Source: Escherichia coli O127:H6 str. E2348/69
GTDB taxonomy: Bacteria; Pseudomonadota; Gammaproteobacteria; Enterobacterales; Enterobacteriaceae
NCBI RefSeq assembly: GCF_000026545.1
Contig: NC_011601.1
Direction: 5' to 3' (one strand)
DNA: 64,000 bases
The position numbers are program-made. This document shows, piece by piece, positions 42,001 to 48,000 of this stretch (position 1 is its first letter; each line of letters starts with the position of its first letter).

Positions 42001-45000
42001 CATTAATCGGCGAAATTTGTCTGCTGGAAAAAGGCGTCAATACAGTGGTCGCCAAAGCGCATAGTCTGTTTCACCACTCGCGTAAGAAGCCAGCGCATGA
42101 ATCTTTTATTCAGAATTTTGTCGCGATTATTGTCCTGTTTTGCGCCAGCGGCACCGGAATCTTCGGGGCGATGAACGAAGGGATGACCGGCGATCCGAGT
42201 ATTTTAATCGCCAAGTCATTTCTCGATTTCTTTACGGCGATGATCTTCGCCTGCTCGTTGGGTATTGCGGTGTCGGTGATTAGCATTCCATTACTGATCA
42301 TCCAGTTAACGCTGGCGTGGGCTGCCGCGCTGATATTACCGCTGACCACACCGTCGATGATGGCAGACTTCAGCGCCGTAGGCGGTTTATTGCTGCTGGC
42401 AACCGGATTACGCATCTGTGGCATTAAAATGTTCCCGGTGGTCAACATGCTTCCAGCACTCCTTCTGGCAATGCCGCTTTCCGCCGCCTGGACCGACTGG
42501 TTTGCCTGACAATGCGTGCAATAGCGGCAAAGTGATGATAGATTGTGCAGTCTGCAGTAAATTGAAGAAATTTGATTGACGAGACGAGGCGAATCAGGTT
42601 TAATGCGCCCCGTTGCCCGGATAGCTCAGTCGGTAGAGCAGGGGATTGAAAATCCCCGTGTCCTTGGTTCGATTCCGAGTCCGGGCACCAAATTCATATC
42701 AACGGACCTCCACGGAGGTCCGTTTTTCGTTTCAGAACACCATGATTTAAGTGTTCTTCCTCCAAATCAATTCTACCGAACTCAACCAAATTCTCCCCAC
42801 ATCAACCTCATTGTGTGGGTATAATTGCGGGCATACCCCAGTTCGACAGAATTTGTACCCTCTTTAACGCATTCAGAAGGCTGAACTATGGCACTGACTG
42901 ACGCAAAAATCCGGGCTGCAAAGCCCACTGACAAGGCTTATAAACTCACTGACGGGGCTGGCATGTTCCTGCTGGTACATCCTAATGGTTCCCGTTACTG
43001 GCGTCTCCGTTATCGTATTCTGGGTAAAGAGAAGACTCTGGCACTTGGTGTGTATCCAGAAGTATCTCTCTCCGAAGCTCGTACAAAACGGGATGAGGCC
43101 CGAAAACTGATTTCGGAGGGGGTTGACCCTTGCGAACAGAAAAGAGCTAAAAAAGTAGTCCCTGATTTACAACTCTCTTTCGAACATATTGCACGACGCT
43201 GGCATGCCAGTAATAAACAATGGGCACAATCACACAGCGATAAAGTACTCAAAAGCCTCGAGACACACGTATTCCCCTTTATCGGCAATCGGGATATCAC
43301 AACACTCAATACCCCGGACCTGCTTATCCCTGTTCGTGCTGCAGAAGCTAAACAAATTTATGAAATCGCCAGTCGTCTGCAGCAAAGAATATCTGCCGTA
43401 ATGCGTTATGCCGTACAGTCTGGCATCATCAGATATAATCCTGCTCTGGATATGGCTGGCGCATTGACTACGGTAAAACGCCAGCATCGCCCCGCTCTTG
43501 ATCTTTCTCGCCTGCCTGAACTTTTGTCGCGTATTGGCAGTTACAAGGGGCAACCTGTCACCCAGCTTGCCGTTATGCTGAATTTACTGGTTTTTATTCG
43601 TTCCAGTGAACTCAGATACGCCCGCTGGTCTGAAATTGATATTGACAATGCCATGTGGACTATTCCAGCCGAACGCGAACCTCTGCCAGGCGTAAAATTC
43701 TCACACCGGGGATCCAAGATGCGAACACCACATCTTGTGCCACTCAGCAAACAGGTTGTAGCCATACTGGCAGAACTTCAGACATGGGCTGGTGAAAATG
43801 GTCTGATCTTTACGGGAGCACATGACCCACGTAAACCAATCAGTGAAAACACCGTAAATAAAGCCCTGAGGGTTATGGGGTATGACACAACCCAGGATGT
43901 CTGTGGTCATGGATTCCGGGCGATGGCATGTAGTGCGTTAATAGAATCAGGTTTGTGGTCCCGCGATGCAGTTGAACGTCAGATGAGCCATCAGGAACGT
44001 AACGGTGTACGTGCTGCTTACATTCATAAAGCAGAACATCTGGAAGAACGGCGACTGATGCTACAGTGGTGGGCCGATTTTCTGGATGCAAACAGAGAAA
44101 GATTTATCAGTCCATTTGAATATGCAAAGATTAATAATCCATTAAAACAGTAATCATCCCGGGCAAATGCCCGGGAACCTACTCCAGGATTATTTTCTTT
44201 GTTAAAAAAACAGACAAAACGGTATTAACTTCGTAAGCGTACAGCGAGGGCCGTATTGACGGGGATGTGTTATTCAGCTGGCAGTGCTATGCGCCACGGA
44301 AGCAGTTCGCTGACCCGGTTGACCGGCCAGTCTGCTATGACGCCAAGCACATGGCGAAGGTAGCTTTCTGGATCCACGTCATTCAGTTTGCACATCCCGA
44401 TCAGGCTGTACAGTAGCGCTCCCCGCTCACCACCATGGTCAGAGCCGAAGAACAGGAAGTTTTTACGACCCAGACTGACCGCCCGCAGGGCATTTTCAGC
44501 GATGTTGTTGTCGATTTCCACCCAGCCATCGTTCGCATAGTACGTCAGTGCCGGCCACTGGTTAAGTGCGTACGCGAACGCCTTCGCCAACTCTGAGTAT
44601 CGCGACAGGGTCTTCATCTTTTCACGCAACCAGCTTTCCAGGGATTTCAACAGCGGTTTCGTTTTTCGCTGACGTTCAGCAAGCCGCTGCTCTGCCGGCA
44701 TTCCCCTTATATCCGCCTCTATGGCGTACAACTGACCGATCTGCTCCAGGGCTTCTTCCGTCAGTGCTGACGGGATGCGGACGTGCACATCGTGGATCTT
44801 TCGGCGGGCATGAGCCCAGCAGGCAGCTTCCGTTATCCCACCATTGCGATACAGCTCGTTGAACCCGGCGTACGCATCCGCTTGCAGCACACTGTCACGA
44901 ACGGTGCAATAGTCATCCGTCGTTGACAACAGCTGATACTGAGGGTTTCCGGGTCCTCTGCGAGCGATTCTGGCTGTTCGGCAGCTGCATCGAGAGTCAC

Positions 45001-48000
45001 AGGAAGTAGCTGGGGGCTCTCTGAAGAAGGTAATAGCAGCTTTCCCTCGCGCCATTGTTGTGTAAGCGCCCCATCTGCGACGTCTTGTGAAAATTGTCCT
45101 GTCTGGCAACAATCGCGCCCATCTATATAGATGGACACGAACGATGAATTCCCAGACAAAAAAAGATATTCCCTGCTTCCGTTCTTATTTGCCTGATGCT
45201 CTGCGTTTAAGATTTGAAGATAAACTGACCATCCGGGCCATCGCTCAGCGTCTAGGTCTCAGTCATTCCACAATACATACGCTTTTTCAGCGATTTATTG
45301 CATCCGGTATCGCATGGCCATTGCCCGATTCAGTTTCATTAGCTCAGCTTGACGCCATCCTTTATGCCAACAGAAAGAAGGAATTAACAGAGCCTCAAAT
45401 CAGCGAAGGCACATGGCGAAAAGAACGGCGAGCCAGCTACAGCCGTGAATTTAAGGTCCGTCTGGCTAAGCAGGCATTACAGCCCGGTGCTGTTGTTGCC
45501 CGGATCGCCAGAGAGCACGGTATCAATGATAACCTGCTGTTTAAATGGAAAAGCCAGTACGAGGACGGCTTACTGAGCGATGATGACATACAGGAATGCA
45601 TGCCTGTCCCGGTGGCTCTGACTGATACGCCAGAGCCGACCAGACCAGTTACAAATCCCTTCTGGCGTAACAAGCCTGATGAGTGCCCTGAGAGTGATCC
45701 CGGAAACGTCCCACGGTGCGAGCTGCATCTTAAATCAGGTGTGGTAAAACTGTTTGACCCTCTCACTCCGGAAATGTTACGGGCGCTAATCCGCGAAATG
45801 AAAGGAGGTACCCGATGATAACGCTGCCAACCGGTACCAGAATCTGGATCATCGCTGGCATCACAGATATGCGTTGTGGCTTCAACGGCCTGGCTTCGAA
45901 GGTGCAGAACACGCTGAAAGATGCCCCGTTCTCCGGGCATATCTTCGTCTTCCGGGGCCGCAGTGGCAAAATGGTGAAAATACTGTGGGCCGATCGTGAC
46001 GGGTTATGCCTGTTCGCCAAACGCCTGGAACGGGGCCGCTTCGTCTGGCCGGTAACCCGGGAAGGGAAAGTGCACCTGACGCCAGCTCAGTTATCCATGC
46101 TACTGGAGGGGATCGCATGGCAACATCCCAAACGGACAGAACGGCCTGGCATCCGGATATAACCCGTGATAAAACAGGGGAATGAACAACACACTCCCCG
46201 ACGACATCGAGCAACTGAAGGCCCTGCTGATCGCACAGCAGGCTGTTATCGTCCGTCTGTCTGGTGAAATAACCGGCTATGCCCGCGAGATCAGCTCACT
46301 CAGAGCGCTGGTCGCTAAACTGCAGAGAATGTTGTTCGGTCGCAGCAGCGAGAAAAGCCGCGAGAAGATAGAAAAGAAGATCGCACGGGCAGAAACGCGT
46401 ATAACCGAGCTCCAGAACAGGCTTGGTGAGGCGCAGTTGCAACTCACCTCAATGGCCGGAGAGACAGCGCCGAAAACATCAGACTCTCCCGTCCGCAAAG
46501 CACTTCCGGCAACACTTCCCCGTGACAGGCAGGTTATCTCCCCGGCAGAAACCGAATGCCCCGTCTGCAGCGGCAAACTGAAACCGCTGGGAGAAAGCAT
46601 CTCTGAACAACTGGATATCATCAACACCGCGTTCAGGGTAATCGAAACGGTTCGCCCAAAACGGGCCTGCAGCCGGTGCGACTGTATAGTTCAGGCTCCG
46701 CAGCCACCAAACCCCATCGAGCGCAGTTACGCCAGTCCGGCTCTGCTGGCCCGCATAATCATGGCTAAGTTCGCCGAGCATCTGCCGCTGTACCGTCAGT
46801 CGGAAATCTATGCCCGCCAGGGCGTGGAGCTGCACCGCAATACGATGGGGCGCTGGGTTGACATCATGGGAGAGCAGCTTCGCCCGCTGTATGATGAACT
46901 GAAGCACTATGTGCTGATGCCGGGTAAAGTGCATGCCGATGACACGCCGGTAAATGTACTGGAGCCGGGTCAGGGTAAAACCCGTACCGGACGGCTGTGG
47001 GTCTATGTTCGTGACGATCGCAACGCCGGTTCGACCATGCCGGCAGCGGTGTGGTTCTCATACTCTCCCGACCGCAAAGGCATCCACCCACAGCAACATC
47101 TGGCGGACTACAGAGGTATCCTGCAGGCCGATGCATATGCGGGTTACAATGCTCTTTACGAAAGCGGTCAGGCAACCGAAGCGGCTTGTATGGCACATGC
47201 CCGACGCAAGATCCACGATGTACATGTCCGCCATCCAACGACAGTAACGGGAGAAGCGCTCCGTCGTATCGGGGAACTGTACGCTATCGAGGCTGAGATC
47301 CGCGGCAGTCCGGCAGAAGAGCGACTGGCGGTCAGAAAAGCCAGAACGGTACCGCTAATGCAGTCGTTGTATGAGTGGCTCCAGGGGCAGATGAACACGC
47401 TGTCGCGCCACTCGGATACAGCGAAAGCGTTCACCTATCTGCTGAAGCAATGGGACGCTCTGAACGAATACTGCCGCAATGGCTGGGTGGAGATCGACAA
47501 TAACCTGTGTGAAAACGCCCTCCGGGTAGTTGCACTGGGGCGGCGTAACTACCGGACGTGGTTTCTGCCAGGTAAAGGCAACGGAACAAAAGAATCATGG
47601 TTTTTCCGGAACCGGCCACACCATGAATGACACGATGCCCGTCACCAATATTTCTGGCCAGAATCTCCTGCTGAATATCCATAATTTTGATTTGTGAGTT
47701 CTGTTTCACGGTCACTTCAGGAAACAGATGGGCGCGCAGAATATCCCTCATCCGGGGTGTTACCCGGGTTCTGAACCCCGTGGTAAACATCCCGGCAATT
47801 TTTTGCCGGAATACCTCAGGTAAAACAGACTGCGTCATTTCATCCTGACAGATTGTCTGTGCTGAAGGAAAAATCTTTTCCACCGCATTCTCATTATTCC
47901 CTGTCAGTGCCTTCAGTTGCTGACGGGTAATGCGGGTAAACACCACACCATACGCCCAGGCCAGGTTCAGCCGCCCCTTATACTGACCGTCATTCTGCCG

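Follow-up and report, generated by a model that had tools for sequence, protein, structure and literature searches.

The locus studied here raises a simple question: what is the insertion sequence (IS) material that lies next to the integrase gene of a Phe-tRNA island in Escherichia coli O127:H6 str. E2348/69, and how did it come to be arranged as it is? The window, i.e., the whole stretch of DNA that was analyzed, comprises 64,000 nt of contig NC_011601.1 (assembly GCF_000026545.1). An initial inspection of these nucleotides (the sequence-only reading) had placed two IS66-family copies at 44270-47630, the second of them fused to the remnant of a NERD-domain gene, and had described them as the footprint of successive insertion and deletion events beside the integrase. 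Our analysis supports this interpretation, and we consider it very probable that the region is inert debris that serial transposition and deletion left at the integrase end of an island of the OI-122/SpLE3/IE6 type (IE6 presumably being the name of the OI-122-type island in E2348/69). The coordinates given earlier are those of open reading frames (ORFs); the limits of the elements themselves are 44233-47552. The finding is already known insofar as the RefSeq Prokaryotic Genome Annotation Pipeline (PGAP) lists the same pseudogenes, namely, "ISEc8 family transposase, missing N-terminus," "tnpC missing C-terminus," and "NERD domain protein, missing C-terminus," together with intact tnpA and tnpB genes. 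The island is well studied and its IS debris unremarkable, with no sign of a new element type or mechanism.

Remnants of three mobile elements beside the integrase gene

On the minus strand, positions 44233-45061 hold a remnant of ISEc8 (the name used by PGAP) in two pieces. Alignment to intact ISEc8 identified the first piece (44233-44892) as the right end of the element, consisting of the terminal inverted repeat and the last 206 codons and stop codon of the 512-aa tnpC (44270-44892). Read on the plus strand, the right terminus is GTAAGCGTACAGCG from 44233, preceded by TTAACTTC. Compared with the intact ISEc8 on the O157 plasmid pF8092B-1, this piece shows 4 mismatches in ~660 nt of homology; the two share the same right terminus (GTAAGCG...), and the C-terminal 206 aa of TnpC are colinear, including the IS66 C-terminal domain. 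An intact reference ISEc8 has an 8-bp target duplication, GATTGATT. The second piece (44929-45061) is an internal fragment of tnpA (nt 159-291 of 381) that is identical to ISEc8 tnpA at 133/133 nt and differs from an ISEc22-type tnpA by one mismatch. With 4 mismatches over the ~790 nt of the remaining parts, the remnant is nearly identical to the ISEc8 reference, but it is incomplete, having neither both ends nor three intact genes. Specifically, the left end, tnpB, tnpC codons 1-306, and tnpA nt 1-158 and 292-381 are gone, and what is left, approximately one third of intact ISEc8, is interrupted by a scar of IS100 and by a second element. The minus-strand ORF spanning 44270-45112 matches Pfam DDE_Tnp_IS66 (PF03050; E = 4.6e-56) over profile positions 128-283 only and also carries DDE_Tnp_IS66_C (PF13817), which bears out the earlier description of a fragment that retains the transposase C-terminus and lacks the N-terminus. 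The view of it as a single fragment holds for the 3′ part of the transposase but not for the whole, which is a composite with an internal deletion, made up of the tnpC part, the IS100 scar (missed at first), and the tnpA piece.

The 36 bp between the two pieces (44893-44928, plus strand) belong to neither of them and constitute a two-ended scar of IS100, a member of the IS21 family. They match both IS100 termini exactly, the first 20 nt being those of the istA-side end (TGTCACGAACGGTGCAATAG) and the last 16 nt those of the istB-side end (TCATCCGTCGTTGACA); comparison with the termini of full IS100 copies (loci L006 and L014) gave 20/20 and 16/16 identical nt. In a sensitive search, 28 of these bases matched an IS100 end. 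The 36-mer is unique in the window, with 0 occurrences expected by chance. Like full IS100 copies (5′-TG…CA-3′), it has TG as its first and CA as its last two bases, but it has no istA, no istB, and no 5-bp target duplication, the flanks CACAC and ACAGC being different. Full IS100, in contrast, measures ~1.95 kb (L006, 1075-3026; L014, 2519-4471) and is flanked by the 5-bp duplications GTAAC (L006) and TCTAC (L014), so that 36 bp and no genes are left of it at the scar. The internal deletion of ISEc8, from tnpA nt 292 to tnpC codon 306, has this IS100 relic at its junction. This is what an adjacent deletion associated with an IS, or recombination between two copies of IS100, would be expected to leave once IS100 itself had collapsed; the lack of a 5-bp target duplication is consistent with an associated deletion.

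The second element, on the plus strand at 45062-47552, is a 3′-truncated member of the IS66 family that measures 2,709 bp when intact and is 99.6% identical over 2,491 bp to a complete copy from an O121 strain (NZ_CP028110.1, 3250128-3252836; matched over L011, 6837-4347). Its left inverted repeat (GTAAGCGCCCCATCTGCG...) opens at 45062, at the same first base as in the intact pO145 and O121 copies. As the sequence-only reading had proposed, orfA and orfB are present; these genes, tnpA (45144-45818; Pfam HTH_Tnp_1, E = 1.4e-24) and tnpB (45815-46162; Pfam TnpB_IS66, E = 2.5e-38), are intact according to PGAP. They are followed by codons 1-457 of the 518-codon tnpC (46182-47552), which encode LZ_Tnp_IS66, zf-IS66, and DDE_Tnp_IS66 (E = 1.7e-98), the last of these matched over profile positions 1-275 of 284 and the C-terminal domain being absent. 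Homology to intact copies stops at 47552, where GTAACTAC continues as ATGTTCTTC in the reference and as CGGACGTGG in the window. Lost are the last 218 bp, which correspond to TnpC residues 458-518 (PF13817) and the right inverted repeat (…GCGCTTAC, L002 4198-4205). As the ORF list and the divergence after residue 457 show, the truncated tnpC instead reads on for 25 codons and a stop (47553-47630), antisense to the NERD remnant. The earlier statement that the last ~27 residues of this transposase had been replaced was thus correct as to an unrelated tail, but it is 61 residues that are lost and 25 antisense-NERD residues that stand in their place; the protein can be aligned with the intact 518-aa reference as far as residue 457 and not beyond.

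With the gene order tnpA-tnpB-tnpC and an IS66-type DDE transposase, and with only one of the two GTAAGCG inverted repeats, the 2.7-kb element is an IS66 member by descent but not a complete one. It shares the left inverted repeat, the 224-aa TnpA, TnpB, and TnpC residues 1-457 with a 2,709-bp plasmid element, from which it differs by the missing right inverted repeat and by the reading of tnpC into antisense NERD sequence. Copies of this element are common on virulence plasmids of enterohemorrhagic E. coli (EHEC), enteropathogenic E. coli (EPEC), and Shigella (pO26, pO145, and pO121). From its size and gene layout, we take it to be probably IS679 of pB171, a name to be read as provisional; IS679 was reportedly described by Han et al. 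in 2001 with a length of 2,704 bp. The TnpA of the 2.7-kb element (224 aa by PGAP, or 243 aa from an upstream GTG, 45087-45818) contains an extra N-terminal helix-turn-helix (Pfam HTH_23, residues 42-75) before HTH_Tnp_1; ISEc8 TnpA has 126 aa.

Next, we compared the two transposase pieces with each other. They are homologous, as the sequence-only reading required, with 66% aa identity over 145 aa, and their DNA sequences are 67% identical when aligned as an inverted repeat (44482-44887 versus 47526-47121). The IS66-family assignment of both pieces is far beyond chance by Pfam. The protein of the 2.7-kb element is, however, only ~66% identical to that of ISEc8, and the two are different elements rather than two copies of one IS.

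A probable deletion joins the 2.7-kb element to a NERD+UvrD gene remnant

To the right of 47552, the minus strand carries residues 1-252 of a 581-residue NERD+UvrD-helicase protein (47553-48306), with the Walker A motif kept and 249/252 residues identical to the protein of strain MDP9-27. The proposed fusion of the plus-strand unit to this remnant was thereby confirmed to the base. Since the junction consists of a 1-nt overlap (a single shared C at 47552) and has no IS terminus, it points to an illegitimate deletion rather than to a transposase-made joint. The intact 581-aa homologue of MDP9-27 (L007, 5010-6755) contains the Pfam domains NERD, UvrD-helicase, and UvrD_C and matches the PADLOC candidate C3a187, a single-gene "NERD+UvrD" defense model, from end to end (E = 2e-137), whereas the window remnant covers model positions 1-238 of 559 and therefore falls short of a full-length member. 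Because the helicase core beyond Walker A is deleted, the remnant is a pseudogene. Given that the intact protein fits a PADLOC defense model, the deletion would have destroyed a candidate anti-phage gene, and the locus offers a case in which such a candidate (NERD+UvrD helicase) was probably lost as collateral of an IS-associated deletion.

Nested insertion and proposed order of events

The left inverted repeat of the 2.7-kb element abuts internal ISEc8 tnpA sequence at 45061/45062, i.e., the element is nested in ISEc8. An 8-bp target duplication is typical of the IS66 family; in the window, only one end of the 2.7-kb element is left, and the 8 bp in question are ATTGTTGT. To search for the other half, we assembled a synthetic 476-nt query that runs from the lost right end of the element through ATTGTTGT into ISEc8 tnpA nt 158-1, reverse complemented, and on to the left end of ISEc8. 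This reciprocal junction, with the same 8 bp, was found as one 100%-identical piece on two plasmids (strains QML220601 and NADC1036). Its existence supports a single insertion there, into an ISEc8 that was already present, and together with the nesting, it sustains the earlier suggestion that the minus-strand fragment is the older of the two.

Given the anatomy and the junctions as observed, the region probably arose in four steps. ISEc8 would have come first, its right end landing at 44233, 80 bp beyond the end of the integrase gene, and the 2,709-bp element would then have entered ISEc8 tnpA at nt 159-166, duplicating ATTGTTGT. IS100 would likewise have entered ISEc8, where an IS100-associated deletion would have taken the sequence from tnpA nt 292 through the first 306 tnpC codons, and IS100 itself would later have collapsed to the 36-bp scar with its two tips only. 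An illegitimate deletion with a 1-nt overlap would have removed the last 218 bp of the 2.7-kb element and the remaining left part of ISEc8, along with a stretch of the island and 990 bp from the 3′ end of the NERD+UvrD gene. We infer that the first, second, and fourth of these steps took place in that order; the position of the IS100 step in the series is not fixed.

Of the IS66-type ends, two survive, at 44233 and 45062. Each has GTAAGCG as its plus-strand sequence, which places them in direct orientation. A composite transposon was considered and ruled out, since the surviving ends are direct rather than inverted. Taken together, the missing ends, the missing genes, and the direct orientation predict that none of the three elements would transpose as a unit. 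The only intact IS ORFs left are tnpA and tnpB of the 2.7-kb element, and the module is passed on and transferred simply as part of the island.

Related arrangements and the case for recombination

The pheV locus of O121 strain RM8352 (L011; NZ_CP028110.1, 3246000-3256500) contains the same integrase and the same ISEc8/flank junction (99.8% over 2.4 kb), with a complete ISEc8 tnpC (512 aa) and a complete 2.7-kb element (518-aa TnpC). It is a less decayed relative of the window module and supports the view that ISEc8 arrived before the 2.7-kb element and was originally complete. In the O121 strains, the Phe-tRNA island of this type is a second one, and the nested element is complete at different internal junctions; at least one O121 strain, GTVSS-020, carries both the O121-type and the scar versions. 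The O121 TnpC has a G in place of the second D of the HADDTPV motif found in the window, and judging from this residue, even the full-length O121 copy may be catalytically impaired.

Several observations weigh against the history proposed above. The two plasmids on which the reciprocal junction was found have another tnpA pseudogene, on the plus strand, as their left flank. In O121, the 2.7-kb element is bordered on one side by a point 26 bp upstream of ISEc8 tnpC and on the other by tnpA nt 218, and a matching 8-bp duplication for ISEc8 was not found there (TTAACTTC versus GTTCAAAG). No single genome in our collection contained an intermediate in which an intact 2.7-kb element separates two ISEc8 halves with the 8-bp duplication. 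For IS100, a full-length intermediate would be flanked by GCAGCACAC or, on the opposite side, by ACAGCTGATAC, and chimeric queries against the genome collection returned no single-piece match with full-length IS100 at either scar junction, so that the IS100 steps are deduced from the scar itself. The nearest candidate intermediates, in 55989, O104:H4, and M15, proved to have IS100 32 bp away in an IS66-family tnpC and were set aside as independent events. We also examined whether the O121 layout and the window could derive from one nested insertion by deletions alone and rejected this, as the element has tnpA nt 167-218 on one side in the window and on the other side in O121. The 476-nt query matched eight O121 genomes in two pieces, with 52 extra bases. 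The mismatched O121 junctions and the plasmid left flank imply either repeated entry into ISEc8 or an exchange of flanks among IS copies.

The second of these possibilities leads to the alternative that survives best, namely, that the junctions were imported ready-made by homologous recombination among dispersed copies of the 2.7-kb element and ISEc8, the layout being a recombinant mosaic. We regard this as a serious minority view, perhaps a third as plausible as its negation. It would account for the reciprocal half of the nested insertion being on plasmids with an unrelated left flank and for O121 having the same integrase and ISEc8 end with other junctions for the 2.7-kb element; the presence of the scar version and the O121-type junction together in GTVSS-020, as well as the abundance of the 2.7-kb element on EHEC, EPEC, and Shigella plasmids, also speak for it. 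The right junction at 47552, however, lies inside the element and has no IS end, which indicates a deletion and not an exchange of whole IS copies, and the original nested insertion with its ATTGTTGT duplication is still needed somewhere. Recombination would therefore alter where the events happened, not what the region is, and the reading as debris of serial transposition and deletion is the one that we retain.

Recurrence of the 36-bp IS100 relic

The 36-mer itself was found in 447 E. coli genomes, in 7 of them twice. Its second site is in a tellurite-resistance island (L005, 3001-3036; NZ_CM143728.1), where it differs by one mismatch, is joined internally at the same 20+16 point, and lies between perfect 5-bp direct repeats (CTTTA) as long as an IS100 target duplication. 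A search for full-length IS100 at this tellurite-island locus found none; apparent extensions into the flank were checked on L014 and discarded as weak BLAST over-extension. The relic could thus be a recurrent, favored product or a minimal element similar to a miniature inverted-repeat transposable element, mobilisable by the IS100 transposase, rather than the leftover of a single local collapse. The identical internal junction at unrelated loci, the CTTTA repeat, and the lack of a full IS100 at either site speak for this explanation, which we nevertheless hold to be improbable: the 36-mer occupies two loci only among 5,426 E. coli genomes, and its 24-nt junction had 0 matches in ~100,000 species-representative genomes, so that a miniature element in wide circulation can be ruled out. 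Two loci do not suffice for calling the relic a mobile miniature element.

As a separate observation, full IS100 recurs in or beside IS66-family genes in M15 (L006), 55989, O104:H4, and O111:H21, and in strain MEI005 (L013), it is located at the 3′ end of ISEc8 tnpC. This suggests that IS66-family DNA may be a preferred target of IS100.

Distribution and conservation of the module

To count the module, we required at least 80% of a 3.7-kb query in one place in complete E. coli genomes. By this measure, it is present in about 436 of 5,426 genomes, at pheV or pheU, with 99.4-100% conservation. The query matched at 100% in three E2348/69 assemblies and at 99.9% in O111, and it was also found in O157:H7, O103, and other attaching-effacing strains; in O103:H2, the identical module and integrase protein are at pheU. 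The identical junctions at pheV (O127:H6 and O157:H7) and pheU (O103:H2) indicate that the decay preceded the spread of the island between lineages and tRNA sites. The wreck is accordingly usable as a marker of shared ancestry, with the O121 version as the outgroup state.

Such conservation across several serotypes and two tRNA sites could also be taken to mean that the arrangement is kept for a function, with tnpA/tnpB or the chimeric ORFs regulating the integrase or excision, or with a functional truncated NERD protein. The tnpA and tnpB genes are, after all, intact and identical in protein sequence to those of active copies. We find this very hard to credit. Near-identical copies are to be expected if an island has spread horizontally in recent times, and they do not testify to selection; the module has also decayed further elsewhere: in O103, an IS3-family element has inserted into the NERD remnant, and in strain Z1323CEC0018, the module match stops inside tnpC and is followed by nleB. 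In addition, the tails of both chimeric ORFs come from reading unrelated genes in antisense, PGAP calls these ORFs pseudogenes, and Rfam shows only a tRNA in the region. Finally, a mis-join of the assembly across repeated IS sequence, although IS66-family repeats are numerous (up to 34 places per genome), can be dismissed with near certainty, since three independent assemblies of E2348/69 and hundreds of genomes, each finished independently, have identical junctions.

Island setting and neighboring genes

The genes around the module identify the island. In the order speC, yqgA, tRNA-Phe, P4-type tyrosine integrase, and IS remnants, the tRNA gene (pheV; 42615-42690, plus strand), detected by ARAGORN and Rfam and annotated in RefSeq, is the attachment site of the island. 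The tyrosine integrase (WP_001218841.1; 42888-44153, plus strand) is intact, with the Pfam domains Arm-DNA-bind_3, Phage_int_M, and Phage_integrase in agreement with its annotation, and lies upstream of the ISEc8 end, separated from it by a gap of 80 bp. An Rfam scan of 42.0-49.5 kb returned only the tRNA and no other RNA family. Farther downstream, the island contains a pagC-like Ail/Lom gene, espL2, nleB, nleE, and efa1/lifA. The gene order from speC to the integrase, combined with these downstream effector genes, identifies the island as that known as OI-122 in EDL933 and SpLE3 in Sakai. The pheV/pheU site, the P4-type integrase, and the cargo genes are all those of an OI-122/IE6-type Phe-tRNA island; the integrase, IS debris, pagC-like gene, espL2, nleB, nleE, and efa1/lifA are all shared, and we found no difference between the window and OI-122/SpLE3/IE6. 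OI-122 occupies pheV in O157 and pheU in non-O157 EHEC (PMC3893438).

To the right of the IS debris, the segment 48484-51226 contains further gene wreckage. It begins with the pagC-like Ail/Lom outer-membrane gene (48484-49032), which is low in GC (~38-40%), and includes a frameshifted remnant of the type VI secretion system gene for TssE/gp25 and a frameshifted IS4-family transposase (~49957-51226), after which an IS481-family fragment lies upstream of espL2. In strains with an intact NERD+UvrD gene, that gene adjoins the same pagC-like and TssE-remnant genes.

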